From the sequence record OK428535.1: DNA of 64,000 bases; one strand, given 5' to 3'. The notes under the pieces are model-generated. The model saw only the letters and a list, made by a program, of their open reading frames with translations, was not told where the DNA came from and made no database searches. How positions within the stretch are numbered: position 1 is the stretch's first letter; the number at the start of each line of letters is the position of its first letter. The DNA comes from Escherichia phage vB_EcoM_Lh1B. Position numbers and translations under genes: made by a program. Positions 6,132 to 30,877 of the stretch are shown one piece after another.

Positions 6132-6190
6132 TTATCGTAATTTAACGNGGAACTTGNCGGGTTTAAANCCNGAANANAACCCNNNCCCNN

Positions 6191-6218
6191 TTCCCCNCGG
6201 GGAAGNGGNTTTNTTTTT
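6191..6218 (+). terminator. probable terminator (low-quality sequence)
   Basis: ttcccc-n-cggggaa hairpin followed by a T-run, inside an n-rich patch. Confidence 0.3.
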
Positions 6219-6836
6219 ATGACCCTATCAACTCAGGAGGTTATCGTGGTCGATCGTTGGAGTAAAGAGGGCATTATTCGTGCCAAAGTAAACATCGAAG
6301 CCGGTTACGTTAATAACCCGAAAGATTTGGGCAAAGCAACGAACCGCGGTGTCACCGAACTCACTGCGCGAGAATATGGCTATAAAGGGGATATGCGTGA
6401 CCTGAGCTTAGAAATCGCGTTAGACATTTACAACAAGCTCTGGTGGCAGCGGATGCGTTTAGACCAGATTATGAAAATGAATGTCCTGCTAGCTGACCGA
6501 ATGTTTGATTTCGGCATCAACGCAGGACGCGGTAACTGTATCAAGTCCCTGCAACGTATTCTGAACGTATTAAACCGCCAGGGTAAACTATACGATGATA
6601 TCGATGCCGATGGTGGTATCGGGCCACGTACGTTAACAGCGTTAGAAGGCTTCATCAAAGCCCGTGGGGAAGAGGGCCTGAATCGACTGATGTTCGCTTT
6701 AACCTGTCATCAGGTTGCGTATTACACGGAAATCAGTGAAGGGCGTGAGGATAACGAAGAGTTTACTTACGGCTGGTATGGCCGCGTCTATCAGGAAATG
6801 CCAGACTACGTGGCTAAGTTGGGGATGTGCAAATGA
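6219..6836 (+). CDS. endolysin: GH108-type N-acetylmuramidase with PG_binding_3 domain
   Basis: N-terminal EAGYVNNPKDLGKATNRGVTE matches the GH108 EGGYvnDP..GG.T..GIT signature; C-terminal DADGGIGPRTLTAL matches the PG_binding_3 DG.iGp.T..AL motif; no signal peptide or TM segment. Confidence 0.8.
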   Translation: MTLSTQEVIVVDRWSKEGIIRAKVNIEAGYVNNPKDLGKATNRGVTELTAREYGYKGDMRDLSLEIALDIYNKLWWQRMRLDQIMKMNVLLADRMFDFGINAGRGNCIKSLQRILNVLNRQGKLYDDIDADGGIGPRTLTALEGFIKARGEEGLNRLMFALTCHQVAYYTEISEGREDNEEFTYGWYGRVYQEMPDYVAKLGMCK

Positions 6837-7124: not shown

Positions 7125-7766
7125 ATGGAAGCACTTAAGTATAAGTTGTTAGAGAAGCCGTGGTTTATCCTCACGGATGATTTCCATTTCGAGTTTACGT
7201 TGCGCAGCCTCTATCGTGAGCACACCGGAATGGATGCGATGGTAGCATTAACAGGTGTACACCCGGATACTCCGTTATGGGTAACGGTACCGAAAGGATT
7301 TGTAACGGACCTGGCAAGCATTCCAGAAGCGNTNCNNCCTATCCTNCNNCCGGANGGGCCTTGGGCCGCNGCCNCTTGTGTGCATGATTTGTTTTACCAG
7401 AAACGTTCATCGGGGGTCTTGTACCCTGACACTGTCGAAGGTAATCTATCTCGTGCATGTGACAAAACATTCGCTGACCTGATGTTCTTACGTATCATGG
7501 AGGCATTAGGCGTTGACACCTTTATTCGTAAGTCCTTCTACCATGCCGTTCACGAGTTTGGTTGGCCGTCCTATGTAGACGATAACTCTAAGGTGGTTTA
7601 TAGCCGGCCGGTAGAAAAGACGTTGTCCTATAATCGCAACTACCTGTTCTTTAGAACGTCGCGTACGTTAGCGATTCCTGAACACGAACGTGTTGACATT
7701 ACTAATGGGCAACCGGTAAACGTGCAGTATTTGAATATCAAACGTGCGTTCCTGACTACCCCTTAA
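7125..7766 (+). CDS. hypothetical protein (DUF1353-like motif?)
   Basis: 213-aa ORF with GAGG RBS; motif VTDLASIP...CVHDLFY resembles the DUF1353 signature from memory. Confidence 0.55.
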   Translation: MEALKYKLLEKPWFILTDDFHFEFTLRSLYREHTGMDAMVALTGVHPDTPLWVTVPKGFVTDLASIPEAXXPIXXPXGPWAXAXCVHDLFYQKRSSGVLYPDTVEGNLSRACDKTFADLMFLRIMEALGVDTFIRKSFYHAVHEFGWPSYVDDNSKVVYSRPVEKTLSYNRNYLFFRTSRTLAIPEHERVDITNGQPVNVQYLNIKRAFLTTP

Positions 7767-7775
7767 GGAGAGAAA

Positions 7776-8291
7776 ATGTTTCATCCGAATCCTGCCAACT
7801 TCGCGTTAAAAGAGTTGATGCCGCAGGAGTACATCGCGAAATATGGTGAAGGTGCTATTCGTTTCCTTAATCCGTTACTGCTAATCTCGCTCCAACAGAT
7901 TCGTAATCGTTTTGGGCGGATGGTGATTTTAACCAGTTCCCAGCAACAGCGTAGTCTGCGTACCCTGCAGTTCTTTATTAATCAAGAGAAACCAAAGGGT
8001 GGAGATTGGCAAACTCGTGCAAACAAACTGTACGCCGAATCAGGCAGTATGCATAAATTCGGTAATGCGTTTGATGCAACAATGCTTGATACACCGTTGC
8101 AGAAAGTACACGACTATATTGCCGCGAACCCTAACGAGTTTCCGTTTATTCACTTTATCGAGTGCGATATTACCTGGCTGCATGTTGACGTACGCAACCA
8201 GCCTGATATCACCTTCTGGTCACCGACACGTGGTACCGTTAAAGTGGTTAAGCAACAACCCATCGATTGGAGCAAGCTAGTTAAAATCTAA
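7776..8291 (+). CDS. peptidase M15-family (Peptidase_M15_3-like) cell-wall peptidase
   Basis: AAGGAG RBS; motifs SMHKFGNAFDAT and WLHVDVRN match the Zn-binding S.H..G.A.D / HVDVR signature of M15 D-Ala-D-Ala / L-Ala-D-Glu peptidases. Confidence 0.6.
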   Translation: MFHPNPANFALKELMPQEYIAKYGEGAIRFLNPLLLISLQQIRNRFGRMVILTSSQQQRSLRTLQFFINQEKPKGGDWQTRANKLYAESGSMHKFGNAFDATMLDTPLQKVHDYIAANPNEFPFIHFIECDITWLHVDVRNQPDITFWSPTRGTVKVVKQQPIDWSKLVKI

Positions 8292-8383
8292 GCCACTTTA
8301 ATCAAAAGTAATATCATTTATCATTTGATACGTTTAATGCGCTTAGAGAGCGTTACAGAGCGTTTTAGAGGGTAAATAAAGCC

Positions 8384-8414
8384 CTTACCCACTCCCCTTA
8401 CGGGAGTGGGTAAG
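8384..8414. terminator. bidirectional rho-independent terminator
   Basis: Stem CTTACCCACTCCC / GGGAGTGGGTAAG with A-rich 5' and T-rich 3' flanks, between convergent genes. Confidence 0.6.
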
Positions 8415-8416
8415 CA

Positions 8417-8908
8417 TTATTTATTTTCTTCTAACGGAACAATCGTAATCGGAGTAGGAACTTCACCGATAAACCCGCTGCTGCAGCGAAAGAATGTCAT
8501 CCCTTTACCTTCGCCGGTATACGGGTTCACATCCGAAAAAGAATAAGTGGGGCTATCGTTTACGGTTTTATTAATACGGTAATAACGCTCACCTGTGGTG
8601 GTGTTAACATTCCCGTCGATTTTGCCGATCACGTCTTTAAACATCATCGGTGACTCTAGTTTGCCACCGTCCCACGCTGCTACCCAGTTTGCACCCACAT
8701 CCATTACTGTTACTGACCGCGGCATCATTTGTAGGTTGTCCAGTACCGGACGGTAGTCTACAAACTTCTCCTGCGTCCCTGTGCATGTATAAATCACCAA
8801 GTCGTGATTCTTTACTGGTGTGGCGCTAAATTGTCCTATGTTGCTTGGCGACTGAACACAACCGGCCAACAGGTTTATAATCGCGAATACGATAAATAGA
8901 CGTTTCAT
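8417..8908 (-). CDS. lipoprotein (possible superinfection-exclusion or receptor-masking protein)
   Basis: Signal peptide with lipobox MKRLFIVFAIINLLAGC; AGGA RBS. Confidence 0.65.
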   Translation of the reverse strand: MKRLFIVFAIINLLAGCVQSPSNIGQFSATPVKNHDLVIYTCTGTQEKFVDYRPVLDNLQMMPRSVTVMDVGANWVAAWDGGKLESPMMFKDVIGKIDGNVNTTTGERYYRINKTVNDSPTYSFSDVNPYTGEGKGMTFFRCSSGFIGEVPTPITIVPLEENK

Positions 8909-9032
8909 AGAGTATCCTTTCAGTGGTAAAAACTTTCTCGTTTAACAGCCAACTTTACTGTCATATTAAGCCCACTATGTTGTTTTTAGAACGATTTAGT
9001 ATGCACCACAAACCTACTATAAGGAAACAACC

Positions 9033-9581
9033 ATGGCAGTCATCTCTGCAAAAGACCAACTCGTCGCGCTGTTTAATGCTGCAAACAGCGGACTGTCTAG
9101 TCCGTTAACTACTGCTGACGTTACATTCGGCGCTGTTGCTGACTATTCACCAGCAGATTCTGGAGACACTCGCAACTCCAAACTCACCATCACTGCCACC
9201 GCGGAATCCGCTAACTTTACGGGCGAGAAAGAGCTGCACTATACCCGCCTCGATTCATTGAACATCATCGGTGCGAAAGCAGTTACCGCTGACCAGGCAG
9301 AATGGGATACCGATGAAGAAGTGCTTGCTTTTGTCAACGCAGATCTAATTGCCGCCGGTAAAACGGAAGATGCGTTTGCATTGTCTGAACTCACCATTTC
9401 ACGCGAGGACGGCGACAGTGGTGAGAAAATCATCACTGTTATGGTGAAAGAAGGCCACATTAAATACCAGCCTGCCAGCCTTGCAGTTTATACTGTAACG
9501 CAGCCAATCGTTAAAACTGACCTGAGCACCACCAACGGTGAACTAGACGGATTCGTTTCACAAAACAACGTTAGTATGTAA
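9033..9581 (+). CDS. hypothetical protein sharing a C-terminal motif with the first CDS
   Basis: 182-aa ORF; C-terminus DLSTTNGELDGFVSQ is paralogous to the TNGELDGFQ end of CDS 2-634. Confidence 0.55.
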   Translation: MAVISAKDQLVALFNAANSGLSSPLTTADVTFGAVADYSPADSGDTRNSKLTITATAESANFTGEKELHYTRLDSLNIIGAKAVTADQAEWDTDEEVLAFVNADLIAAGKTEDAFALSELTISREDGDSGEKIITVMVKEGHIKYQPASLAVYTVTQPIVKTDLSTTNGELDGFVSQNNVSM

Positions 9582-9620: not shown

Positions 9621-9644
9621 CCTACCTCCCTTCGGGGAGGTAGG
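9621..9644. terminator. bidirectional rho-independent terminator
   Basis: CCTACCTCCC-ttcg-GGGAGGTAGG hairpin with TTCG tetraloop and A/T-rich flanks, between convergent genes. Confidence 0.6.
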
Positions 9645-9661: not shown

Positions 9662-10333
9662 TTACATGCCGAGTGACTCGGACAATGTTTTTAATCCGGT
9701 GTAATCGCGCTTTTCAGCTAACTCACGGATTTGGCGTTTGTTATCTGCCATTGCTGAGTGCAACACTTGGTCACGTGCAACAATAGCGGCCAGCAACGCT
9801 TTACATTGGGCTACTGTAAACGGACTGTGCTTAGTATTCAGCGTATCGAGCCAGTATTCTGGTGCGGTATCTGCCTGAATGTATTGACCGAGGATGGTAC
9901 GCGACGATTCATCGGCTTGAAAGTGACTACCTTCAAACTCGATATAACCATGGCGCTCATCTTCGTAGCGGTGGTCGAGTTCCAACAGCATCTTCTGCAC
10001 GTCTTCGTAAATGTAACGTGCGGTAGATTTCAGATTCCCGCGAATTTCGTCGAGGTCAATCTCCAGCACATTAGCAATAAACTCTTTCGTGCGTTTCAAT
10101 GTGAAGTTAGCTTCAATCTCCGACATCTCATACAGCTTCATGCGTGCCAGGGCTTCTTTATCAGACATCCCTTCGATGAGATGGTAATGGAGTAATGCAC
10201 AAAATCCGGTACGACCCTGATCCTGCGCACCGATTCGTTCCATGAAATTACCGTGACGATCAATCGGCAAATCACGCTGGAAATAACNGGCGCGGATCTC
10301 TTCGTTCGTTAAGCTTTTGTCAGTAACAGACAT
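9662..10333 (-). CDS. hypothetical protein, last gene of the rSAM/Cys-peptide operon
   Basis: 223-aa ORF with GAGGAGG RBS; overlaps the upstream gene by 25 nt. Confidence 0.55.
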   Translation of the reverse strand: MSVTDKSLTNEEIRAXYFQRDLPIDRHGNFMERIGAQDQGRTGFCALLHYHLIEGMSDKEALARMKLYEMSEIEANFTLKRTKEFIANVLEIDLDEIRGNLKSTARYIYEDVQKMLLELDHRYEDERHGYIEFEGSHFQADESSRTILGQYIQADTAPEYWLDTLNTKHSPFTVAQCKALLAAIVARDQVLHSAMADNKRQIRELAEKRDYTGLKTLSESLGM

Positions 10334-10875
10334 TCGTCCTCCTCAATCAGGCCAAGTTCTAACAACAAACCGAAGTCCAGCATCTGGAAGTCCTGATCGA
10401 GGTTACCGGCCCACAACAGAGAAATGTTGTGTTGCTCTTCTTCTTCCAACTGCGGGAGCAGGTGTTCTTCGAAGATTTGACGTTCTGTGTAATAAGCGTC
10501 AACCGGGTTATTGGAGCGTAAGTTACGAATACGCATCCGCGGGAATGACAAGCCCAATGCCACTAAACTTTCAGGACTGGCTTCATCAATAGAGTGACGT
10601 AGCAGTTCGATTTTGTGGCGTGGGTATGCAAGCAGTCGCTTCTCAAAGCCAGGGTTGCGCTTTTCGATTTCCGCGACAGACTCGTGTCCTTTCTCAACGC
10701 AGTAGACCGGGATCATCACATTCAGCCCGTATTTAATCAACAGGCTTTGGATTTCATCAGTGAAGTCTTCCCCTGCCACAATTGCGTGCACATTGTACAG
10801 CTTGCTTTTGCGCAGGAAGCGATCGACCAAGTGCAGTTTACGCTTCGTAAAATTGTGAATCAGTATTGACTTCAT
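10309..10875 (-). CDS. hypothetical protein (start uncertain)
   Basis: ORF 10309-10953; most plausible start is the ATG at 10875 (MKSILIHNF...) with GGAG RBS; overlaps the rSAM/SPASM gene. Confidence 0.5.
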   Translation of the reverse strand: MKSILIHNFTKRKLHLVDRFLRKSKLYNVHAIVAGEDFTDEIQSLLIKYGLNVMIPVYCVEKGHESVAEIEKRNPGFEKRLLAYPRHKIELLRHSIDEASPESLVALGLSFPRMRIRNLRSNNPVDAYYTERQIFEEHLLPQLEEEEQHNISLLWAGNLDQDFQMLDFGLLLELGLIEEDECLLLTKA

Positions 10876-12166
10876 TCTGGGCTCCGTTTTGTAATTTTTC
10901 TGCTTCGGCACGTTGGCGTACACAACGTGAACAATAGCACATGGATTTATCATGCAAATCTGATGCGCGAGTCGTACCAGTTTTCTGATACCAATATTCC
11001 GCCGCCATCAGCTTCGCAGTAGTCCAACCACACTGACGACGCTCGGCGTGATACGCTTTACGGTCTTCCAGTGTACCTTCACCGTTTTCGTACGATGCTG
11101 CTGCGCAGCTACCGCAGCTGTGTTTCATCGGACACCCTAAACAAGTTTCTGGGTAGTTGGTGTACTGCGTTTGAATCTCTTCTAACAGCTTACCGCCGTC
11201 CAGGCTCACAAACTCACGACCGACCAGTTCCGCTACAGCAGAGCGGGAAGTTACCGTGGACATGAAACGGTTACAACCGTAAATCTTGCGATCAAAGCCG
11301 AGACAGGTCATGTGCGTCAACGTACCGCAGTACGGTTTCAGGCGTTCTGGGTCGAGACGAACAGAGTCGTCATGTAAGAGTTTGTCACGCCAATCCGGGT
11401 CCCAAGTTGCCATAAAGTTCAGGCCATCCGGGATGATGTGCGTAATCGTGTTACGCGGGTTGGTGTGCAGACCCTTCTCAATCCAGTAGTCCATCACGTC
11501 CATCATCTGGTTCGCGATATCCAACGCCATATGGCGCGGCAGGATATCTTCGTACGTCACGTTACCAGAAATGGTACCACCGCCGGACATGTCAATTAAC
11601 GATTTCATGCTGGCGGCATAGTGCGGCAATGTATCGATCGTAAACGTCGCCTTTACGCCCAGTTCAGCGATGCCAACACTCTTCAGATAATTGTAACCGC
11701 GTACCGCAGCTTCGTACGACCCTTCACGCGTCGTGGTAAAGATACGATATTTGTCATGGACTTCAGGTAAACCATCGATGGAGACCCCAATAGACAGTTT
11801 GTCTTTCCAGCGCTCGATAATTTCTTTGTTCAGCGGACGGTCCAGAAGCGTACCGTTCGTGGAGATACTGAACATATACGGGCGATTGTGTTCTGCGCAT
11901 AACTTCTCTGCGGTTTCAAAGGCCGCCAAAAGAAGTTTAGGCTGCATGAACGGCTCACCACCGATGATATCGATGATGACTTCAACGTTCGGGATATCTT
12001 TATCACGCTCGAAACAAGCGTGGATAAAATCAATCACGTCTGCTACTTTGTTGTTACGCGGATATTTACGCTCGTAGCAGTATTCGCAGTCCAGGTTACA
12101 TGACAAGTTAGTCACAACCTGATACGTGCGTGGTGTGTACTGGATTTGCTGTTCGTTATTACTCAT
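10838..12166 (-). CDS. radical SAM enzyme with SPASM-type C-terminal Cys cluster (anSME/peptide-maturase-like)
   Basis: CNLDCEYC (Cx3Cx2C) at residues 23-30; C-terminal CLGCPMKHSCGSC plus further Cys residues typical of SPASM auxiliary Fe-S domains. Confidence 0.8.
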   Translation of the reverse strand: MSNNEQQIQYTPRTYQVVTNLSCNLDCEYCYERKYPRNNKVADVIDFIHACFERDKDIPNVEVIIDIIGGEPFMQPKLLLAAFETAEKLCAEHNRPYMFSISTNGTLLDRPLNKEIIERWKDKLSIGVSIDGLPEVHDKYRIFTTTREGSYEAAVRGYNYLKSVGIAELGVKATFTIDTLPHYAASMKSLIDMSGGGTISGNVTYEDILPRHMALDIANQMMDVMDYWIEKGLHTNPRNTITHIIPDGLNFMATWDPDWRDKLLHDDSVRLDPERLKPYCGTLTHMTCLGFDRKIYGCNRFMSTVTSRSAVAELVGREFVSLDGGKLLEEIQTQYTNYPETCLGCPMKHSCGSCAAASYENGEGTLEDRKAYHAERRQCGWTTAKLMAAEYWYQKTGTTRASDLHDKSMCYCSRCVRQRAEAEKLQNGAQNEVNTDSQFYEA

Positions 12167-13073
12167 TGTTCGCCGCCCGTTTACGCTTAGCAGAAATTAC
12201 ACGGTTGATGTAGTTATACGCATCAACGCCGATAGAACGCGCCAGGCGATTACAGCCGACTTCCAATATCTCTGGGGCGTTCTGAATTTGCTCCTGCGTA
12301 CCGTCGGCGTTAAGCCACAGCACTTCACTGCACGTGTTGCACTCGGTATCGAACATTTTACTGATCGCAAGCCCACATTCAGAATCGTTCTGCATGTTAA
12401 GGCGTTCGATATTGTCGAGTATTTTCCAATACCCGTACATGAAGTTCATGACGTGGTCTGGCGATAACGGTTTCGGCATCATCGCATCAAACAACAACGA
12501 CACACCACCTGGACGGTAATGATAGATTGCTCGGTGCAGCTCGATGAAATCTTCGTACCAGCGTTTATCGCCTAACTGGTCACGCGTCATCACACCCCAG
12601 GTGTAATAATTGTCCAGCTCGTACAGCACTTCCAGCGCTTCGTGATTACCACCGTTTACAAAGTTCATAAACGGACGTTCCGACTTCTTGTAGCCGTCAA
12701 TGGACACAAAGATAAGGTCGAACTGTTTCAGCAACGGCAGATGTGATTTACGCATCTTTAAACCGTTGGTGTACATGTGATGACGGAGGTTCGGATGAGA
12801 CTCCTTCAACTCGTTCACGAAGTCTTCAATCTTACGCTGCGCTAACAGCGGCTCACCGCCCGTCCAATGAATCTCACCGATATCCGGATTCTTCTCTAAA
12901 ATCGAGAGAATCTCTTCACGTTGAAACTCACGAGAAGTATCTTCTCTATCCATGTAATAAGCCCCTCCACAGAAGCTACAGTCTAAGTTACACTTAGAAG
13001 TTGCGACAACCGACAGAATTGACGGTTTGTCGTACAGTTCAGACGAGATCCTGGATTCTACTTGATCTGTCAT
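12159..13073 (-). CDS. radical SAM enzyme (second, shorter)
   Basis: CNLDCSFC Cx3Cx2C motif near the N-terminus; C-terminal ECNTCSE...GCN partial Cys cluster; stop overlaps the start of the downstream rSAM gene by 8 nt. Confidence 0.75.
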   Translation of the reverse strand: MTDQVESRISSELYDKPSILSVVATSKCNLDCSFCGGAYYMDREDTSREFQREEILSILEKNPDIGEIHWTGGEPLLAQRKIEDFVNELKESHPNLRHHMYTNGLKMRKSHLPLLKQFDLIFVSIDGYKKSERPFMNFVNGGNHEALEVLYELDNYYTWGVMTRDQLGDKRWYEDFIELHRAIYHYRPGGVSLLFDAMMPKPLSPDHVMNFMYGYWKILDNIERLNMQNDSECGLAISKMFDTECNTCSEVLWLNADGTQEQIQNAPEILEVGCNRLARSIGVDAYNYINRVISAKRKRAANNE

Positions 13074-13094
13074 TGCAGGTTGCTCCAGTATTTT

Positions 13095-13982
13095 TTAAAT
13101 ATAATCAATGGCGAATAAAGGATCTTCGTCTACGTTAGCGCCAGGCACCAGTAACATCGGGTCGTGATAGGCAGCTAAAATTTTGTTCAGGTCGGCGTGT
13201 CTTTCGTTCAGACGTTTCAAATCGGCCAACGTTACCGAACGACCACGAATCTCAGAAACAGCTTCTGCTTCTTCTTTCGTTAAATCCACCTTCGTTAAGA
13301 GGAAACTTACCAGCTTACTCAAATCCGCTTCTGTCGCCGGGTAATCCCCATATCGGGTTTGAACCAGGTGTTGCATCCACGGCTTACGAATACGTTTGGT
13401 GATTTCAAAATCGTCAGTCAGCGCATACCAGACAGAACGCTTTTTATCCCACACGAACTTATAGCTATACGCCATCATGTCCGCTAAACGGGTGATGCCG
13501 AGTTCTTTATACCCCTCGATATCGATGTATGGTTCGGTGTCGAAATACGTTTCCGTATCGGCAGGTACCAGTACAAAGTAGTAAGGGAACGAGCCCAGAT
13601 AGTCCGGACTCCACCAACGGCGCGCCATCGGTTTTGCTTCAAGTTCGTCAAACGGTGTAAACATCAGTTCTAAATCGACGCTGTTGTTCAAAATCCCTTC
13701 GCTGAAGAAATACTTACCGTCGACTAACACGCCACGAGAGTTACCATCGCCGTTAAAGATAACGATGGCCTCTGCAACCATATCACGGATCTTAAACGTA
13801 TTTTCTACGGTGTAGTTCTTCTTGTCGGTCAAGAAGCGACCACGAACCTTTGGCCACTCACCAGGAATCTGTGCAATCAGTCTGACTTTGTCAGCAAGGT
13901 GCGCACGCACTGAATCTGGGGAAGATAGATGCAGCGGGTGGTTGAATGTGGTTTTATACGCAAGATGCAAATCGTTTTTCAT
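13095..13982 (-). CDS. hypothetical protein co-operonic with rSAM enzymes
   Basis: 295-aa ORF with GGAG RBS immediately after the peptide genes; no motif recognised. Confidence 0.55.
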   Translation of the reverse strand: MKNDLHLAYKTTFNHPLHLSSPDSVRAHLADKVRLIAQIPGEWPKVRGRFLTDKKNYTVENTFKIRDMVAEAIVIFNGDGNSRGVLVDGKYFFSEGILNNSVDLELMFTPFDELEAKPMARRWWSPDYLGSFPYYFVLVPADTETYFDTEPYIDIEGYKELGITRLADMMAYSYKFVWDKKRSVWYALTDDFEITKRIRKPWMQHLVQTRYGDYPATEADLSKLVSFLLTKVDLTKEEAEAVSEIRGRSVTLADLKRLNERHADLNKILAAYHDPMLLVPGANVDEDPLFAIDYI

Positions 13983-14004
13983 TTAATACTCCGAACGTTT
14001 TCTG

Positions 14005-14211
14005 TTATCGATTCCCCGCTCCACGGCTACAGCTTCCGCTGCAGGACCAGCTACACCCACCATTACAGTTATAGTGAGAAAGCGGTAAGCCAGCCAGGTT
14101 ATTTGTGGTCGACACGGTGCCCTGGTTAGCGATATAGTTGTTTGCCTGTGCGGTTGTAATGTAACCTTCTACCGTAACGAGACGGTTTCGAATAGTCTTG
14201 AGACTGATCAT
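14005..14211 (-). CDS. Cys-rich peptide, short paralog (leader + truncated core)
   Basis: 68 aa; leader MISLKTIRNRL... and core SHYNCNGGCSWSCSGSC are paralogous to the two larger peptides; GGAGG RBS. Confidence 0.55.
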   Translation of the reverse strand: MISLKTIRNRLVTVEGYITTAQANNYIANQGTVSTTNNLAGLPLSHYNCNGGCSWSCSGSCSRGAGNR

Positions 14212-14226
14212 ATAAGCCTCCGTCAG

Positions 14227-14631
14227 TTAGGAGTTAGGACCTGAACAACCACCAGAACACGCGCCGGAGCAGTTTGCGGAACAGGATTTGCCACAGCCGC
14301 CAGAGCAGTTACCAGTACACGTTCCGCTACAACCACCAGAACATGAAGAGCTGCAACCCGTACAGCTGCTGCTACAGCCCGATACACAGTTTGCGGAACA
14401 AGTCGACCCACAACCACCCGTAGCAGACCCAGTACACCCGCCAGAACAACTCGAGCAACTAAAAGAGCATGTGCCACCACAGTCATAGTGCGAACGGCCT
14501 TGACCTGCGAACAAGTCGGCGTTATTCGTAGCTTTATTGCGAATGTAGTTTTGCACATTCGTGGTGTTCTTTAAAGCGTTTGCATCGATCGTGTTTAATC
14601 GGTTATTCAGTTCTTTTAATCCAATTGCCAT
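14227..14631 (-). CDS. Cys/Gly/Ser-rich repeat peptide (candidate rSAM substrate)
   Basis: 134 aa; about 45-aa helical leader (MAIGLKELNNRLNTIDANALKN...) followed by an about 85-aa core of CSGGCSG-type repeats with more than 20 Cys. Confidence 0.65.
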   Translation of the reverse strand: MAIGLKELNNRLNTIDANALKNTTNVQNYIRNKATNNADLFAGQGRSHYDCGGTCSFSCSSCSGGCTGSATGGCGSTCSANCVSGCSSSCTGCSSSCSGGCSGTCTGNCSGGCGKSCSANCSGACSGGCSGPNS

Positions 14632-14641
14632 TTAATCCCCC

Positions 14642-15034
14642 TTAGCGACCTGAACAGCCGCCGGNGCAGGCCCCGGNGCAGTTTGCGGAANAGNAGCCNC
14701 CNCAACCNNCTGAAAAGTTACCGGTACAGCTACTACTGCAACCACCAGAACAACCAGAGCAACCAGAACAGTTACCGCCACACGTCGAAGAACAGCTACC
14801 GATACAAGAAGCAGAACAGCTTCCTGAACAGCTCGAACAGCCATGCGAGCAACCGTTAGAGCANGTCCAAGAACATGTCCCGCCGCAATCTAGCTGTGCT
14901 TTCGTCCAACCCCCAAATCGGTCTGCTGCATTATGGGCTTTAGAGGCCACTTGCGCCTCGATGCGGGGGCCTGTCGCCATGTTAGCTTCGACNATCTGGA
15001 CGCGGTTTCTGACGTCTTTAATAGATATCGCCAT
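14642..15034 (-). CDS. Cys/Gly/Ser-rich repeat peptide (candidate rSAM substrate)
   Basis: 130 aa; same leader/core architecture (..LDCGGTCSW.CSNGCSHGCSSCSGSC..); AAGGAAG RBS. Confidence 0.65.
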   Translation of the reverse strand: MAISIKDVRNRVQXVEANMATGPRIEAQVASKAHNAADRFGGWTKAQLDCGGTCSWXCSNGCSHGCSSCSGSCSASCIGSCSSTCGGNCSGCSGCSGGCSSSCTGNFSXGXXGXXSANCXGACXGGCSGR

Positions 15035-15045
15035 TACGCTTCCTT

Positions 15046-15090
15046 AAAAAGTAGAACGAGCGGACTATGTCCATAAACATAGTCCGGCTC
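15046..15090 (-). terminator. stem-loop / partial terminator between fibre gene and peptide genes
   Basis: Inverted repeat CGGACTATG...CATAGTCCG with T-run on the minus strand, directly upstream of the RBS of the first peptide gene. Confidence 0.4.
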
Positions 15091-15099
15091 GTAAACAAG

Positions 15100-16302
15100 T
15101 TACTTAGTACCCGCTTCAGCTTGAACATCGTCGCGCGAGGTGAGGCTGTTGTTGACGTGAACAGCAGCCTGCACAACACCTCCATACTGTTTATGGAGGT
15201 AATTCGGGTGTGGGTTATCCGCAGCCGCATGGTTCGCCAGATTCTGGTTTGCCTGCGAAATTGCGTTGGTGTTGTTTATAACCTGAGTTTTAAGACTGTT
15301 GATTTGTCCTTGCAGGTTATCAATTTGCTGTTGGAAGTCTTTGCCCTGATTCTCAAGATCCGTGACGCGCTGATTTGTTTCATTCAGTGCAGACTGAAGA
15401 TCGTTAACCATCTTCTGTAATTGCAACACCAGAGAATTAAGGTTAGCTAATGCTAACGACATTTTCTGGTAATTTTGAGCAACCACGTTAAGCTGGTCGT
15501 TCCACGCGGCTAACGAAGCCACAATTGCATCGATGCGTTGCCCCAACGCCGTGTCTGCTNCTCTTAAGTCGCCGATATCGTTGATAGTGGCGTCAATGGC
15601 AGTCTGTACACTTTGAATCAGGGCACGAATCTCCGTCTCCGTCAGGCCATTAACCTGATGAATGTCGAGATTGTGTACGTTACCTTCGGCGTTGATGTGT
15701 GTATTTAAGGCGTCGAGGAAGTCGTTTCTCAGACCGTCCAGAATACCTTTAATTTCTTCCAGCTGTACTGCAGAGCCGGAGTTAATCGCATCTTTAATCC
15801 CCGCGAGTACGGTAATGATATACTCAAAACCGTAGATATCGCCAAGGTCTTTATACGTCGGGGCGGACGGGAACGTATCGGGTACGTTTCGAAGATCCTT
15901 GAAGTCCACCACACGGTCTTCAATTTTCAGCGACGCAATCGCTTGTCGGATGCCTTCGACGTTCGCGGACTGAAAACCACCAACGACTTGCGCAGAGACT
16001 TCGATATCAGTAGGAATGGCCGAGTTAGTTACCACCACACCCATGACCACTTCGCGGTTCTTGGTCATTTTCTGATATGCAGTATGTGCAAAAATCAGTT
16101 CGTAGTCTGTGCCGCGTTTGTACGGGTAGACACCTGGTTTATTCGCAGCTGCCAAGCGGAAGGTATCCGCGTAGAAAGCTCCGTCAGGAAAAGCAAAAGC
16201 CCGGTTAACTTTACCAGAACCTAACGTAATACGCCGTGTAACGGCGTTCGACGTTAATGTCCCGGTAAGGTCGAGCGGGTACTGATGAATGATTTCGGCC
16301 AT
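15100..16302 (-). CDS. short fibre-like protein: N-terminal tail-attachment domain plus coiled coil
   Basis: ATG at 16302 with AAGGAG RBS; N-terminal PxGxFY...RGTDYEL motif shared with the three large fibre proteins; long heptad-like Q/N/L-rich segment. Confidence 0.65.
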   Translation of the reverse strand: MAEIIHQYPLDLTGTLTSNAVTRRITLGSGKVNRAFAFPDGAFYADTFRLAAANKPGVYPYKRGTDYELIFAHTAYQKMTKNREVVMGVVVTNSAIPTDIEVSAQVVGGFQSANVEGIRQAIASLKIEDRVVDFKDLRNVPDTFPSAPTYKDLGDIYGFEYIITVLAGIKDAINSGSAVQLEEIKGILDGLRNDFLDALNTHINAEGNVHNLDIHQVNGLTETEIRALIQSVQTAIDATINDIGDLRXADTALGQRIDAIVASLAAWNDQLNVVAQNYQKMSLALANLNSLVLQLQKMVNDLQSALNETNQRVTDLENQGKDFQQQIDNLQGQINSLKTQVINNTNAISQANQNLANHAAADNPHPNYLHKQYGGVVQAAVHVNNSLTSRDDVQAEAGTK

Positions 16303-16349
16303 TGCCAAACTCCTTTGATTGGGGCTTCCTTGCCCCATAGCGCTATCTG

Positions 16350-19300
16350 TTAGGTACGGAACATAAGATTGACCTGGATAATATCAGGCTGTTGACGTCC
16401 TCTCTCGTTCACCCAATCGTGTGCAATCGTTAACGTAAGATCATCGCCTTCCCACGACACGATCGGTGGTGGGAATAAACCCTGAGCGCCCGTGGTAACA
16501 ACCGGGATTGCACCTGCCACATTCGTAAACGTATAGCTACGACTGTTCAGAACAACCGGTGTGCCGTGGGTCTCTCCCGGCTGTGGTAAGATTTGAATCT
16601 TACTATCCGAAAGATCGGTGGTGATTGGTAGACCCCCAGCGTCCGTGAAAAGCCAAGAGCAAATATNCTGGTTNGCTGTTTCGAGCGCTGAAGAACTCTT
16701 CACAGCCGCGAAAGTAAAGGTGCACGGCACGCCTGCTGGCAGAGAGTGCTGTTTGTGGTGCACGGTATGTGGTGACGGCAATAACACTTCTGGATTTTCG
16801 TCAATGTTAACATCCGTACCTTCCGCCTCGACGTTGTAGAAAAAGCCATCCACCGCCTCCCATGGGGCAACGTGGACATTAAAGGTCGTTTCTACTCCCG
16901 GTGTACCTGGGACGACGAATTTACTTTGCACCACCACCATCATAGTTCTTGAGGTCGGTGAGAAAGCGGGCGTTGGAATACCTACCCACTCCATTCCCAA
17001 CGATGCCGCTTCACCGTTCTCATCAGCCGTTACCGTCGCGATTGTTGTAGGATGTTTCCAAAACGCCCCCGACTTGTTTGCCTGAGTAAACGCCGGCAAA
17101 GTTTTCAAGCCTTCGAAACGTTTGGACACCATCGCTTTACCGCGACGCTGTGCGTCAGATACGGTATAAAGCAACTGACTATCCAGATAGCCTTTCGTAG
17201 CATCGATCGACAAAGGACCCATCGCTTCTTTACGCAATGGTGCCAGTCTGCCCGTTGCTGCATCCCTTCCCACTTCCACATCATGCTTATTCTCAACCGC
17301 CGCATGTTCCAACAGTTGTTTCACCGCCCCCAATCGCTTAGCATGTTCGACGTTAGTCTCGACGACTCGTGACGAGCCCGTTTTAACATACCCGATATAG
17401 AGTTCCGTTTCAGTGTCTGGATGTTGAATCACGTCCATTACGTACTTCGGTGTACCATTTTCTACCTTGGCGTGCAGGTAGAATGTCCGGTTCTGATGGT
17501 TTGTTGGAAATGCTGCGCTGAGGTCAATATACCACGTAGGCAGCTTATAAGTGCTCGAGCCGAAACGCAGGTCAACTTCCTCAGTCACATATACCAGCCA
17601 ACCTTCGGCTGTTTCCACNCCAGCAATGACGACCGATTCAGTCGGGCCACTAAAATTAGGAGCCGCGACAAAATCACTCGACGACATTGCGATACCACCA
17701 CAATAGACGTAGTCGAGAGATGAGTTGTGTAGCATCACCTGATCACGATGAGCCAGATAAGCTGGGCTGACTGGAGTGTGTGATGGTGCCATGCGTCCAA
17801 TGCCGTGTGGAGCAGAAGAACGCGTCCAGGTACCATTAGACAGCGTAAGACCAACACCGTAGTTAAGCGCACCCAAGTCGCCAATTTGGCGCAAGGTTAA
17901 CGTGTGTGGAAGATACAACCCGAACTGCGTACCATCTACTGACACCAGTGTAGGTTGTCCCGGCCGGCGTGTTTTTCCTCCCGTTATCTCACCCAACGTA
18001 GCATAGTTCAAGCCATAGTCGAGGTTGTTATAGAAGTCAAACAATGCCAATATCGCTGCCGGGAATGTTACCTGCCCGTTACTGATTGTTGGTTTCAGTG
18101 TAAAGTAGTAGATATCCAACAAGTTAACATTGTTCACAGTACGCGTACATGCTACTTGTGCTAACGTGAGCGGTGTGGCCGTACCAATGCCGATGAACCA
18201 AATGGAGAACAGTGCCTTTCCGGCGTTATTTGCGGCAAGGATAAATTCCGAAGCATAACCATTCGCAGCGCCAGCCGGTGCGCCGTCGATAATCATCTGC
18301 TTCATCTTATCCCATTCGGCTTGTGACAGCGTCAACCGATCGGCATGAATCGTGAAAGTGCCAGAAACGTTGTGGTAAGGGAATGTTTCTGGTCCTGTGC
18401 AATACCAGCCGTTTAACTCTGTACCAGGCGACGCCGGTGTAACAATGTGGCACATCTGCGACAGATTCTCGTACGTGGTAGAATCTACTACACGACGATT
18501 GTTAGTTGGTCCATACCCCGCTTTACCTGAATAAGTGGTGTTCGGATCAAACTCAACTTCAATTGCCAAACGGGTACGCGGCTGTGACAACCAGATAAGT
18601 CTGGAATTCGCTCCCAGAGTCAGCGGATACGCCATGCCCAGCTCGTAGATAGAACCACGACCTTGGTTTAACATTACCGCACTAAAACTTCTGGCAGTGA
18701 AGTTGTAGTCGCACGACAGGTACTCGTACCAACTCACACCGTCATCTAACGTTGTAATCGTGACATAAGGCATTAGGTCGCGATCGCCTGCATGTCCTTG
18801 CGAAACGATATACTTGTCTTGCGATGTTGCAAAGGTTCGGTTATTAGCTTGACCTTCGCCCCATTTCCGGCTCGGAATCCCAATCTCAGCGCCACCGTTA
18901 TAACGAACCGTGGTAAGATCGGCCACAATAGGGAATCGATCAGCACCTTCCAGCGTTATCGTCATTGAACTACAATCAACAACAAAGCTTGACACCCATT
19001 GTTTAAAGTTAATAGTTTGCCCTGTAGTAGAAGCAAACCAAACCGTTGGAGTTAAACCAACACGAAAGTTCAGCCCATCCACACCAATCGCGTGATTACA
19101 TTCCGGACCATGGACAAATTTCGTCGCACTATTCCACTTCGCCGATGCGTCTGCGTAGATTTGTGTTACTGGCGCTACCAACACATCTGTATCAGAACGN
19201 TTCTGACCCTGACGCAAGTAGATATTATCTCCCGACGTTAACATCCCACCTGTTAACACATCCGCCACAAACGTGTTGCTACCACCCAGATTAAGTTCGT

Positions 19301-21533
19301 CGAGTGCGATGCTACGCATACTCACGAAATAGTCACCGGAGGTAAGCACAGTACGGAGCAGATAAACCCGCTCGTTGCAAACGATCAAATCGTTTGTTGA
19401 TGGATCAACAACCCATGGAGCGGTTGTAACTGACACCGGCCCGTTACCATTTCGGTAATCGCCCAACTGAACTTTAACAACACGATGATGTTTTGCATGG
19501 TCAATGGTGCCGTCAAAGATGACCAGGTAGTACGCACCGTCACTGCCTAAGCAGATCATTGCATCTGTACCGGTAATCACAATAGCAACCAGATTCACCC
19601 CAGGATACGCCGACATTCCAGCGGGTCGATAACGTACGGACGTCTGCTGCATATTTTCCAGCGTATTGCTTGGCGACACATCAGCATAGGCGTAATAGAT
19701 AGCCCAGTCACCTGGTGGATTCCCGTTAGAACCATTACGGAGCGAGTAAACCTTACCAGACTCGTAACGCGCCAAACCTTTCTGCCAGGTTTGGTTTTTG
19801 GTATACCCTTCGTAGTTCCCCTGGACAGGTATAGGCAAGAAGTTATTGTTGCCGTACGATGATCCGCCGACAGTCCATGCGGGCAACAGCGTAGCAATCT
19901 TGTCATTCAGTGTGTCAATCTTTTGTTCAAGCAAGAAGCCCTGACGCGAAGTGACCATCTTATCCGAGGTAGTGTCGATTGCATCCCACAGTTTAGCCAA
20001 ACCTGTAACAGACGTGGATGCGTACGGCACGTTATCGAGATCTGCAATGGTGTGGGTGTGCGTTGTAAGCGCTTTGCCTGATAGCACGGTGCGCAACGCA
20101 TTAGTAACCGGTTTCTCCAGCGGCCCGGTATTGTTCATCTTCTCAATACCGAAATCTGCCGCGGTTAAGGTCAGATGCATCTGCCCGTTTGAATCTAATA
20201 CAAACCCTTTACCATTGACTGTATACGTGTCGTCCACATATCCGTCGAGTTTGTTCTTCAAGTCAGTAACAGCTTTTTGGGAAATCGCTGTGGANGCCGC
20301 AGCGGACGCCGAAAGGTTAGTAATCGCAAACAAACCCTGCACAGTTGTGGTTGCTGCAGGCAGCTCCGCATTCATGTAAACTTTGTTTGTTTCTTTACCA
20401 GAGCCGTAAATCTTCAACGTGTCGCTGGACTTGAAGTAGGCGTTTGCTGGAAGTATCTTCACCGAGGTCAAGTACATCTTAACCATATCCGGTGTAACGA
20501 GATACACGCTGTTATACACAGGTGCAAGCACACCTGCATCATAAGCGCCCCACTTGTCACCTGCTTTACCCGAGTGAACCCAAAGCGTGTTCAGACCAGC
20601 ACTGAACTCCGTAGCGATACCCGGTTCGTTGTTATCCCGGTCAGCTTTTAATACCAGCGGTTTTGTCGAGGTGATAATGAACTTCTCACCCTTCATGCTG
20701 ATAACGTGACCAGACGTTGTTTGGAACGTAATCGCGTCGTTATTCAGAACACGCATACGGCCCAGTAAATCGCCCAGGGTATTATCCAGAAGCATGTCAA
20801 CGTGTTTCTGTTGGATGCCACTGGTAGACATTAACGTCACTAACTCTGCCAGTGTACGTCCAAACGCTTTAGTCGCATCCACGGCCTTACCGAGCACAGG
20901 GAGTGCGCCAATGTCACCGCAGGTGTAACCATGTGCATTTTTAATCAGGTGGTGTTGATACATTTCGTCATCAAACACCTGTTTACCGTTCTGATAAATC
21001 AAATCGGTAACTTCGGCAAATGCCTCATCCAGTTCGTGGGCGCGCTCTAAAATACCCAGACGGATATCTTCCAACGCCTTTACGATTTCATCGCGAAGAA
21101 TCGCTTCTTCGAGATCTTTTGGCGGGTCGATTGGCGAGATAATCGGTGGATATTTCATCAGCTCAGACCAATCGCAGTTGCGCGGGTCTTTCATATCCGT
21201 CTTAACCAGATACTTGCCGATTTCAGAAGCAGGGATGCGGTACTGTCGACCAACCGACAACAACTCGTATTCTACCTCTGTGGCGTTCAGCAGCATTATG
21301 CTGCCGTATATTGCATCGTTCTCAGCCTCGGCTAATTCCTGGAAGTAATGTCCTAAGAAATAATCAAGACCTTCTATTAACTTGCGTTTGGTTCCGGTTA
21401 TTTTATCGGTAACGGTTAACGTTAACCCGATGCGATAGAACGGTGCTTCGACGGGAATGACCGTCGAATAACGGTTCGGGTAAGTAGCGGTACTGAGGGT
21501 ACCGTTAAACTGCGCCGCATCTTCTCTCGGCAT
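16350..21533 (-). CDS. tail fibre protein (about 1727 aa)
   Basis: Giant ORF; ATG at 21533 with AGGAGT RBS; N-terminal anchor motif (PFY...GLDYF) shared with the other fibre genes. Confidence 0.7.
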   Translation of the reverse strand: MPREDAAQFNGTLSTATYPNRYSTVIPVEAPFYRIGLTLTVTDKITGTKRKLIEGLDYFLGHYFQELAEAENDAIYGSIMLLNATEVEYELLSVGRQYRIPASEIGKYLVKTDMKDPRNCDWSELMKYPPIISPIDPPKDLEEAILRDEIVKALEDIRLGILERAHELDEAFAEVTDLIYQNGKQVFDDEMYQHHLIKNAHGYTCGDIGALPVLGKAVDATKAFGRTLAELVTLMSTSGIQQKHVDMLLDNTLGDLLGRMRVLNNDAITFQTTSGHVISMKGEKFIITSTKPLVLKADRDNNEPGIATEFSAGLNTLWVHSGKAGDKWGAYDAGVLAPVYNSVYLVTPDMVKMYLTSVKILPANAYFKSSDTLKIYGSGKETNKVYMNAELPAATTTVQGLFAITNLSASAAXSTAISQKAVTDLKNKLDGYVDDTYTVNGKGFVLDSNGQMHLTLTAADFGIEKMNNTGPLEKPVTNALRTVLSGKALTTHTHTIADLDNVPYASTSVTGLAKLWDAIDTTSDKMVTSRQGFLLEQKIDTLNDKIATLLPAWTVGGSSYGNNNFLPIPVQGNYEGYTKNQTWQKGLARYESGKVYSLRNGSNGNPPGDWAIYYAYADVSPSNTLENMQQTSVRYRPAGMSAYPGVNLVAIVITGTDAMICLGSDGAYYLVIFDGTIDHAKHHRVVKVQLGDYRNGNGPVSVTTAPWVVDPSTNDLIVCNERVYLLRTVLTSGDYFVSMRSIALDELNLGGSNTFVADVLTGGMLTSGDNIYLRQGQXRSDTDVLVAPVTQIYADASAKWNSATKFVHGPECNHAIGVDGLNFRVGLTPTVWFASTTGQTINFKQWVSSFVVDCSSMTITLEGADRFPIVADLTTVRYNGGAEIGIPSRKWGEGQANNRTFATSQDKYIVSQGHAGDRDLMPYVTITTLDDGVSWYEYLSCDYNFTARSFSAVMLNQGRGSIYELGMAYPLTLGANSRLIWLSQPRTRLAIEVEFDPNTTYSGKAGYGPTNNRRVVDSTTYENLSQMCHIVTPASPGTELNGWYCTGPETFPYHNVSGTFTIHADRLTLSQAEWDKMKQMIIDGAPAGAANGYASEFILAANNAGKALFSIWFIGIGTATPLTLAQVACTRTVNNVNLLDIYYFTLKPTISNGQVTFPAAILALFDFYNNLDYGLNYATLGEITGGKTRRPGQPTLVSVDGTQFGLYLPHTLTLRQIGDLGALNYGVGLTLSNGTWTRSSAPHGIGRMAPSHTPVSPAYLAHRDQVMLHNSSLDYVYCGGIAMSSSDFVAAPNFSGPTESVVIAXVETAEGWLVYVTEEVDLRFGSSTYKLPTWYIDLSAAFPTNHQNRTFYLHAKVENGTPKYVMDVIQHPDTETELYIGYVKTGSSRVVETNVEHAKRLGAVKQLLEHAAVENKHDVEVGRDAATGRLAPLRKEAMGPLSIDATKGYLDSQLLYTVSDAQRRGKAMVSKRFEGLKTLPAFTQANKSGAFWKHPTTIATVTADENGEAASLGMEWVGIPTPAFSPTSRTMMVVVQSKFVVPGTPGVETTFNVHVAPWEAVDGFFYNVEAEGTDVNIDENPEVLLPSPHTVHHKQHSLPAGVPCTFTFAAVKSSSALETXNQXICSWLFTDAGGLPITTDLSDSKIQILPQPGETHGTPVVLNSRSYTFTNVAGAIPVVTTGAQGLFPPPIVSWEGDDLTLTIAHDWVNERGRQQPDIIQVNLMFRT

Positions 21534-21546
21534 TGCAAACACTCCT

Positions 21547-21592
21547 AATCTGTAATAAAACGGAGACCGCCCTCCCAATAACGGAAGGGCGG
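21547..21592 (-). terminator. intra-operon terminator/attenuator
   Basis: Hairpin CCGCCCTCC...GGAAGGGCGG followed on the minus strand by TTTTATT, between the 1376-aa and 1727-aa fibre genes. Confidence 0.4.
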
Positions 21593-21628
21593 TTTACCTA
21601 CGGACTACCCGCCCGTAGGCAGTCCGTC

Positions 21629-29552: not shown

Positions 29553-30815
29553 ATGACTACTGCTTATCAAGTGCGGGCCGACAGCGCTTTTGGCTTCTCT
29601 CGAGACACCCGAACTTGGGGAACCATCGATGTCACGCAGCCCTTAAATACCCTTTGTGCTAACTACCACTTTTTCGAAGTAGGACTAGAAGCACTAGGTG
29701 CTGAATACACCTTCTATAGCCAGTATCACCTGGCTGATTTACAAAACCGTACGGACACGTTGCAAGATTGGTTAAACACCAANNCAGGAACCCCGATTCC
29801 CACGCTTGGGAAGGGCCTNCCGAANCTCNAATTNNTTGNGGCANATTACCAGTCTATTAATGCAGATGTGCCCGTAGAAACGCACCTGTGCCCTCCTGGG
29901 TACCACTACACTCAGGACTTCAATCCTGATGATGCACACGACGTTGTTGTAGTCTGCGACGATGAGTGGAAAGAGAAATACCGTACTGGGGTACTGTACA
30001 ACATCAACGGTCAATGGGTACCGCACCAATCTGACCCAGTGGGTGTTCGCTTAACCGGCGCTGGTAACATCGTGCGGAGAGCCAACACACCCNACANCGG
30101 CNGTCTAGTGATGGCGAATATTGGTAAAGTGAAGACTTACCCCATATCCGGTTTAACGATGAACAAACTCGATACTACGCGAGATTACTATTCTTCGTTA
30201 ATGTTGACCTTACCCGATTCCATTACAGGGAAAACCGTTGGGTTCGTCATCGGGGGTATTCTGCATTGGTTGCCACCGCAGGGCTATTTCAGCGACCGTG
30301 CGATTATGCTGAGTCTGCCAAACCTTAGCGTGGCGAAGATTGTATTGGAAACCCGTCGCTATTACGATTGGGACGCCATCGGTGTAGGTGATTTAAGTAC
30401 GCCTACGTCCGTTCAACGTATTCGTAACTCAGAAACGTTAAAAGCGTTGCTGACGCACGAATCCTCGTTTATCTTTACGATAGACAACCCGTATCTCGAA
30501 AAAGAGATTCACGGAATAAGCCACAACGCTATCTGGGGCCGGTTCTATTTAAAAGACCCGACTGACCCAGATGGGAAGAAGACGCTAGGTCCTATCTTTA
30601 ACCGTATTGGTAAATGTGTAGGGTACTGGCCGACCTGGGAAGAAGGGGAGTGGGTCTTTAATACCACATTCTTCGACCGGGAAAACTTTTTNTTGGGGAA
30701 CGCACGTTGGTNTAACCAGAATTTGGNAAANGACNCNCAGGNAATNGNNGGGCCTTTCGGGGNTTGGGGTAAGCCGTTTNTTGAAATGCATCGCTACAAA
30801 GNAAGAAAAAAATAA
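29553..30815 (+). CDS. hypothetical protein
   Basis: 420-aa ORF with GAGGAA RBS, divergent from the fibre operon; n-rich at the 3' end. Confidence 0.55.
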   Translation: MTTAYQVRADSAFGFSRDTRTWGTIDVTQPLNTLCANYHFFEVGLEALGAEYTFYSQYHLADLQNRTDTLQDWLNTXXGTPIPTLGKGXPXLXXXXAXYQSINADVPVETHLCPPGYHYTQDFNPDDAHDVVVVCDDEWKEKYRTGVLYNINGQWVPHQSDPVGVRLTGAGNIVRRANTPXXGXLVMANIGKVKTYPISGLTMNKLDTTRDYYSSLMLTLPDSITGKTVGFVIGGILHWLPPQGYFSDRAIMLSLPNLSVAKIVLETRRYYDWDAIGVGDLSTPTSVQRIRNSETLKALLTHESSFIFTIDNPYLEKEIHGISHNAIWGRFYLKDPTDPDGKKTLGPIFNRIGKCVGYWPTWEEGEWVFNTTFFDRENFXLGNARWXNQNLXXDXQXXXGPFGXWGKPFXEMHRYKXRKK

Positions 30816-30823
30816 AAGGTAAA

Positions 30824-30846
30824 CCCTACTCCCAATGGGAGNAGGG
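30824..30846. terminator. bidirectional rho-independent terminator
   Basis: CCCTACTCCC-aat-GGGAGnAGGG hairpin with A-rich and T-rich flanks. Confidence 0.55.
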
Positions 30847-30877
30847 NACCTATATNTTTTTTTTGCCNGNNGGCCGA

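Follow-up and report, generated by a model that had tools for sequence, protein, structure and literature searches.

The window analysed here was a 64,000-nucleotide (nt) stretch of Escherichia phage vB_EcoM_Lh1B (sequence record OK428535.1). It contains two adjacent genes for radical S-adenosylmethionine (SAM) enzymes, called gp163 (large enzyme) and gp164 (small enzyme) after their counterparts in phage SPN3US. Our reading, to which we give a probability of about 0.6, is that gp163 and gp164 form the enzymatic half of a four-part phage cassette that modifies Cys-repeat proteins encoded in a tail-fibre operon. The four parts would be the (CXXX)n proteins, an accessory protein of novel fold (gp165), gp164 and gp163, co-transcribed with tail-fibre and baseplate genes. 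The features of the cassette were as follows.

10838..12166, minus strand: large radical SAM/SPASM enzyme, 442 amino acids (aa); SPN3US gp163, 'radical SAM 1'
12159..13073, minus strand: small radical SAM enzyme, 304 aa; SPN3US gp164, 'radical SAM 2'
12159..12166, minus strand: 8-nt overlap ATGAGTAA of small-enzyme stop and large-enzyme start
13095..13982, minus strand: accessory protein gp165, 295 aa, upstream of both enzyme genes
14005..14211, minus strand: Cys-repeat protein A, 68 aa, 4 Cys at spacing 4, own Shine-Dalgarno sequence
14227..14631, minus strand: Cys-repeat protein B, 134 aa; 20 Cys, mostly CXXX, after an N-terminal region of 50 aa
14642..15034, minus strand: Cys-repeat protein C, 130 aa; 18 Cys in the window plus codons with ambiguous bases

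The linkage of enzyme and repeat was found across viral loci. Of the 79 viral loci with a large-enzyme relative, 77 had a long Cys-repeat open reading frame (ORF), with up to 92 Cys, nearby; apart from a few, these ORFs were at most about 5 kb away and in the same orientation. A long Cys-repeat ORF was also present at 10 of the 12 best genome loci, and at none of the 68 loci that matched the generic radical SAM core only. The CXXX target models TIGR04114 and TIGR04117 matched the peptide ORFs weakly; TIGR04114 scored 16.3 bits in the window and 19.3 bits for the SPN3US orthologue (cut-off 20). All three repeat proteins belonged to phrog_6085. These sequence results strongly suggested that the Cys-repeat proteins are the substrates of the enzymes, as the initial annotation had proposed for the adjacent Cys-rich peptides.

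Two radical SAM enzymes and their relatives

The initial annotation had placed two adjacent radical SAM ORFs at 10838-13073, and both were recovered at exactly these positions on the minus strand. Each carried the CX3CX2C motif, as CNLDCEYC (residues 23-30) in the large enzyme and as CNLDCSFC (residues 28-35) in the small one. Both passed the Pfam Radical_SAM model PF04055, with 55.6 and 58.8 bits, respectively (cut-off 29.5). The triad Cys and the GGEP motif were conserved in the homologue alignments of both enzymes. The C-terminal Cys patterns described earlier were likewise present and conserved, with eight auxiliary Cys in the large enzyme and three in the small one. About 40 deposited phage genomes have kept the pair, as have distant prophages and viral contigs, so the two-enzyme Cys pattern was not due to chance. 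Translational coupling had also been claimed for the two genes; the 8-nt overlap was confirmed, and it suggests that they are coupled.

The best NCBIfam match of the large enzyme was TIGR04115, a CXXX-repeat-target peptide maturase family, with 125.6 bits (below the cut-off of 350). The PapB family NF047865 followed with 113.6 bits (cut-off 340), its match spanning positions 12-319 of the 330 in the profile. Next came other peptide maturases and anSME, and all scores were far under the curated cut-offs. Among 24 aligned homologues, the most distant with 32% identity, the auxiliary residues C280, C298, C342, C345, C351, C354 and C379 were invariant, and C288 was nearly so. The hallmark of SPASM domains is a seven-Cys pattern, CX9-15GX4C...CX2CX5CX3C...C, that holds two auxiliary [4Fe-4S] clusters. 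The large enzyme deviates from it in having the spacing CX2CX5CX2C and in not keeping the Gly of GX4C. A Pfam scan at E<=0.1 gave no SPASM-domain match to the large enzyme, and Radical_SAM and Fer4_12 were the only matches. Its family profile aligned with CteB (E=3.2e-36) through both the radical SAM and the SPASM region. The match began at CteB residue 103 and left the N-terminal peptide-recognition domain uncovered, that is, the recognition element (RRE) of RiPPs (peptides that are ribosomally synthesized and then modified post-translationally). On the basis of the Cys pattern and the CteB alignment over the SPASM region, the large enzyme is placed as a SPASM enzyme related to the peptide maturases, without a built-in recognition domain, and, given its score, in a sister clade to TIGR04115. 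This agrees with the earlier description of the 442-aa enzyme as SPASM-like and akin to anSME or peptide maturases.

The C-terminus of the large enzyme ends in a CxCxxC tail (CYCSRC in the window, residues about 418-423, 10838-10960). The jumbo-phage clade has kept this tail, which neither the prophage enzymes nor the more distant relatives carry. An additional metal site or a mimic of the substrate are two possible roles for it.

In the small enzyme, family models covered just the first 110-155 residues or so, which are the generic core. Beyond the triad, its only conserved Cys were C245, C248 and C274, among 18 close and 6 distant homologues. The predicted fold was nearest to the SPASM peptide maturases. 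By this prediction the small enzyme looks like a SPASM maturase shorn of most auxiliary Cys, that is, a truncated SPASM enzyme. The term 'twitch-like', given to it in the initial annotation, is acceptable only in the loose sense of this truncated appearance.

The N-terminal cores of both enzymes matched viperin, MoaA, QueE and NrdG models weakly, which would suit enzymes of nucleotide or cofactor metabolism, or of counter-defence, that have nothing to do with the peptides. Close homology of both enzymes to housekeeping enzymes such as QueE, NrdG or MoaA, with unrelated adjacent peptides, had been named earlier as the result that would speak against the first interpretation. For the small enzyme, the scores were 43 bits for MoaA (cut-off 284), 40 for QueE (260), 39 for NrdG (131) and 29 for PflA (232), all confined to the N-terminal core. 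The pVip (viperin) models gave 45-48 bits over about 100 core residues, at profile positions 9-115 of about 260, and the viperin model NF038283 gave 44.9 bits (cut-off 180). The roles of QueE, NrdG, MoaA, PflA and viperin were rejected as generic core matches far under the cut-offs. Full-length similarity of the enzymes points instead to peptide maturases, and their linkage to Cys-repeat ORFs is almost universal. A role unrelated to the peptides is extremely improbable.

Several known systems were compared with the cassette. The CXXX-repeat system, with a TIGR04115 enzyme and TIGR04114 or TIGR04117 targets, is like it in that a SPASM enzyme stands beside tandem Cys-X-X-X proteins. Three such repeat ORFs lie by the window enzyme at 14005-15034, and viral TIGR04115 members lie by repeats of up to 92 Cys. 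It differs from the clade of the window, which adds a second, smaller radical SAM enzyme and gp165. No description of the chemistry of the TIGR04115 family, or of a phage tail-fibre context for it, was found in the literature searched. From the ranthipeptide thioether synthases PapB (freyrasin) and CteB (SCIFF) the window enzyme differs as follows: it was below the cut-offs of their families, was without the N-terminal RRE of CteB and had CX2CX5CX2C, not CX3C, in its SPASM region. The window repeats were also without the regular Asp/Glu acceptors of PapA.

The HxsABCD system resembles the cassette in its parts: it too pairs a large SPASM enzyme with a small radical SAM enzyme, beside a repeat peptide and an accessory protein of unknown function. 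HxsB was among the top matches of the large enzyme and HxsC among those of the small one. However, the scores were 75 bits against a cut-off of 370 for HxsB and 45 against 268 for HxsC, the window repeats are based on Cys and not on His-Xaa-Ser, and gp165 had no detectable link to any Hxs protein. Hxs is not known as a phage system. The QhpD/QhpC system is similar in that a SPASM enzyme staples a functional protein rather than a secreted peptide, and its model TIGR03906 matched the large enzyme. The score was 55 bits against 453, and the target of QhpD is an enzyme subunit, which is neither a repeat nor a virion protein. The anSME enzymes have the SPASM fold, in which both auxiliary clusters are fully ligated, and were among the best solved relatives of both enzymes. 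In contrast, their reaction is a single oxidation that turns Cys or Ser of a sulfatase motif into formylglycine; a sulfatase gene is absent here, and TIGR03942 scored 57 (cut-off 349).

Cys-repeat proteins and the cassette in other phages

Proteins A, B and C are paralogous, and each has its own Shine-Dalgarno sequence. All consist of an N-terminal region of about 50 aa followed by a Cys at every fourth residue, with 4, 20 and at least 18 Cys, respectively, in the window. The residues between the Cys are almost all Ser, Gly, Thr, Asn or Ala. Protein C had 21 Cys in all 15 related phage loci. In these loci 21 of 21 Cys columns of protein C and 20 of 20 of protein B were invariant, compared with 10 of 60 and 12 of 61 non-Cys core columns, respectively. 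Therefore, the Cys residues and their number are under selection. The tryptic peptides of protein B include LNTIDANALK, NTTNVQNYIR and ATNNADLFAGQGR. The window has 315 ambiguous bases, many of them clustered, in 18 patches (for example 1863-1968, 6148-6213, 14665-14709, 30692-30896 and 52506-52655). One patch lies inside the repeat of protein C and masks about three Cys codons. For gp165, no fold match was obtained and no NCBIfam model matched.

The enzymes were present in 42 of 50,697 deposited phage records, namely those of SPN3US, CR5 and Erwinia jumbo phages and four faecal contigs. Therefore, SPN3US-, CR5- and Erwinia-type jumbo phages are the only cultured models. The cassette also occurred far from this group. 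Deferribacter abyssi has a homologue of the large enzyme (38% identity) in the tail module of a lambda-like prophage. There, a GpJ-like tail protein is followed by a 302-aa Cys-repeat protein, then by relatives of gp165 (E=2e-9) and of gp164 (a radical SAM enzyme of 263 aa, E=2e-14), and last by the SPASM enzyme. The 302-aa protein has a 28-Cys CXXX repeat as its C-terminus, and its sole tail-related match was a sub-threshold one to the Pfam phage-tail-repeat (16.7 bits, cut-off 27). Other viral contigs had all four components again in shuffled order. The contig IMGVR_UViG_3300006545_000001 (279 kb; loci L103 and L104) also has the enzyme pair, where it adjoins a 911-aa protein that is helicase-like by eye. 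In the 284-kb viral contig L106, the small and large enzymes are in a single uninterrupted reading frame of 686 aa (7137-9194).

The initial annotation had suggested sequential modifications or different substrate peptides for the two enzymes. The latter case, for example the small enzyme acting on protein A or a fibre protein and the SPASM enzyme on B and C, would fit the three paralogues of two kinds (4 Cys and 20-21 Cys) and the different auxiliary clusters of the enzymes. However, the pair and gp165 are retained in prophages and contigs with one Cys-repeat protein, both enzymes are in one reading frame in L106, and the gp164 and gp163 genes overlap. Separate substrates are disfavoured by these findings and have little probability. 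The same findings argue, with moderate confidence, that both enzymes would work on one substrate.

More distant viral enzymes passed the TIGR04115 cut-off, with 434 bits at locus L113, 586 at L145 and 383 at L007, and their loci had a single enzyme only. A shared accessory protein was sought in this single-enzyme clade and rejected, since the ORFs of about 190 aa between repeat and enzyme were heterogeneous and partly alternate-frame artefacts. Separately, the Margulisiibacteriota/Termititenax contigs L003-L005, from metagenome-assembled genomes, encode, beside a large-enzyme relative, proteins of about 670 aa whose CXXX-like repeats hold 58-69 Cys; the enzyme of L003 scored 273 bits on TIGR04115 (below 350).

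In several loci of other phages, the Cys repeat was the C-terminal module of proteins that matched tail-fibre PHROGs. The genes around such loci included tail-fibre and baseplate-wedge genes. A motif before the repeat, NAxxLxG...Y.C..CSW.C, was found in the SPN3US-type proteins and in the repeat carriers of L002, L098, L100, L102 and L107, and among these carriers that of L107 matched tail-fibre PHROGs. The conserved Trp (CSW[ST]C) was rejected as a marker of the two-enzyme clade, since L099, L105 and L106 have the small enzyme without the Trp.

The tail-fibre operon and its annotation

The region 10300-15100 of the window had 99.1% identity with Salmonella phage MET_P1_082_240 and 97.9% with SPN3US. 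The window belongs to an SPN3US-type jumbo phage of the genus Seoulvirus. The other features around the cassette were as follows.

21566..21593, minus strand: strong terminator-like hairpin directly upstream of gp168, 5' boundary of the operon
16350..21578, minus strand: giant baseplate/tail-fibre candidate, SPN3US gp168, first gene of the operon
15100..16338, minus strand: coiled-coil virion protein, SPN3US gp167 (phrog_2163), found in SPN3US virions
10309..10875, minus strand: protein of unknown function, SPN3US gp162 (phrog_7988), probable start at Met27 of a 214-aa ORF
9662..10333, minus strand: DUF4376 protein, SPN3US gp161, last gene of the operon
9621..9644: strong bidirectional terminator-like hairpin, 3' end of the operon

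The hairpins at 21593-21566 and 9644-9621 enclose gp168, gp167, C, B, A, gp165, gp164, gp163, gp162 and gp161, which are tightly packed. The genes from gp168 to gp161 are one terminator-bounded operon, in which the cassette is together with tail-fibre and baseplate genes. The operon, gp165 as a fourth component and the repeats as C-terminal modules of fibres elsewhere were all overlooked in the initial annotation. In published SPN3US work, gp168-170 are baseplate/fibre candidates, and the virion proteomics found gp167-170 and did not list gp161-166. The absence of gp163-165 from the virion proteins fits a role as maturation factors. The fibre proteins upstream of Cys repeats in other phages had phrog_2163 only in common with gp167; direct homology between them was rejected, since pairwise BLAST was non-significant.

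The tail-fibre context argues for a virion-associated structural role over a released peptide. In the latter case, A, B and C would be leader-plus-core precursors of a classical phage-borne RiPP, such as a bacteriocin, signal or metal chelator, and the fibre neighbourhood would be incidental. The small size of the proteins, their common N-terminal region of about 50 aa, the three paralogous precursors and the homology of the enzymes to RiPP maturases are in keeping with this. However, neither a protease nor an exporter gene was found in the operon by ORF listing and by Pfam and PHROG scans, and the system was without the RRE-recognised leader and leader protease or exporter of RiPP pathways. 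The repeat is fused C-terminally to tail-fibre-like proteins of 250-670 aa in other phages, and the junction motif of the N-terminal region also occurs in Cys-repeat carriers, some of which match tail-fibre PHROGs. The Cys number is constant (21 and 20) across relatives, and the cassette lies within tail modules of unrelated phages. We consider a released peptide unlikely.

The reference records of SPN3US have errors at this locus. In GenBank JN641803 (L001; 12924-13259) and RefSeq NC_027402 (L162), gp166 is in the wrong frame of the protein B repeat, and proteins A and C, whose window equivalents are within 14005-15034, are left out. Both records begin gp164 at Met41, past the CX3CX2C motif (12954-13073 of the window is lost), so the radical SAM motif is missing from the annotated protein. 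The annotated gp166 frame was rejected in favour of the Cys frame, which matched phrog_6085 at E=1.8e-41 and has a Shine-Dalgarno sequence and invariant Cys columns. In the later record MN445185, the three peptides and the 304-aa enzyme are all annotated correctly. The codon-repetitive DNA of the Cys repeats also yields long spurious ORFs, at 14223-14558 (minus strand), 14288-14488 (plus strand) and 14632-14844 (minus strand), which are a trap for gene callers. Proteomics and genetics built on the SPN3US records would miss the system.

Two further ORFs lie outside the operon. The N-terminus of a 163-aa ORF (SPN3US gp159; 8417-8908, minus strand), MKRLFIVFAIINLLAGC, reads as a putative lipoprotein signal peptide with lipobox. 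A 205-aa ORF (6219-6836, plus strand) contains EAGYVNNPKDLGKATNRGVT, which we take to resemble the N-terminal motif of GH108-type phage muramidases.

Proposed reaction and significance

In the proposed mechanism, each enzyme would cleave SAM to a 5'-deoxyadenosyl radical, which would take a hydrogen atom from the Cys repeat, while the auxiliary Fe-S clusters would hold the substrate cysteine. The two enzymes would act together on one repeat domain, with gp165 as partner. The product would probably be a row of thioether cross-links derived from Cys, of the kind that PapB, CteB and QhpD form; by this analogy, the confidence in thioether cross-links is moderate to weak. The repeat would become a thin rod or tip, stapled covalently and independent of disulfides, that would form in the reducing cytoplasm and would join or attach to the fibre apparatus. 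From the tail-fibre context, incorporation of the Cys-repeat proteins into the virion is suggested with moderate confidence. The complete proposal, that radical SAM enzymes staple a Cys-repeat module of phage fibres and that part of the virion is RiPP-like and thioether-cross-linked, is tentative, and we put it at somewhat below even odds.

The repeats might instead be metallothionein-like metal or Fe-S modules, with the enzymes loading or remodelling a metal centre or making a change other than cross-links, such as formylglycine formation or epimerisation. The composition of the repeats, about 25% Cys, rich in Ser and Gly and without aromatic residues, is metallothionein-like, and anSME is among the nearest solved relatives of the enzymes. 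Metal-stabilised fibre tips are also known, for example the iron sites of the T4 long tail fibre tip. However, the families that come closest by score (TIGR04115, PapB and CteB) consist of thioether or peptide cross-linkers, metal-handling genes are not present, and a SPASM enzyme that loads metal onto a target would be without precedent. A metal or non-cross-linking function is unlikely.

Several points weigh against modification of Cys-repeat proteins by the enzyme pair, or against cross-linking in the virion. The scores of the large enzyme are far below the cut-offs of TIGR04115 (125.6 against 350) and PapB (113.6 against 340), and its reaction could differ from theirs. In the single-frame version of L106, the small domain is without the three auxiliary Cys. 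L103 and L104 have the enzyme pair with no Cys-repeat ORF within 8 kb. An RRE was not found, and gp165 is without a fold match. No mass shift or cross-link for any CXXX-repeat system was found in the literature searched, and A, B and C are so far undetected in virions. These proteins could not have been found by the published database searches of virions, should those have relied on the SPN3US annotation. Finally, radical SAM enzymes are oxygen-sensitive and SPN3US is grown aerobically; under laboratory conditions the phage may thus be able to do without the system, or the system may work only in part.

It was already known that both enzymes are annotated as radical SAM proteins and that the CXXX-repeat target system is curated as families. 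Full-text literature searches found no link of radical SAM enzymes to phage fibres or SPN3US genes and no CXXX-repeat chemistry. No literature description was found of the tail-fibre context, of the variant with two enzymes and gp165, or of the fixed-length Cys-repeat proteins of SPN3US type.

If the proposal is true, this would be the first case of a virus structural protein that is modified post-translationally by radical SAM enzymes. Phages would build host-recognition parts by radical chemistry, and their covalent, redox-insensitive cross-links would arise in the cytoplasm, which does not allow disulfides. The CXXX-repeat target family, so far uncharacterised, would gain a function, and the presence of the module in 77 of the 79 viral contigs retrieved would be explained. 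The finding would join the enzymology of RiPPs and radical SAM proteins with phage structural biology. The system would be widespread in gut and anaerobe phages, with the SPN3US-type phages as its sole cultured models, and SPN3US, which is genetically tractable, would be a suitable test bed.

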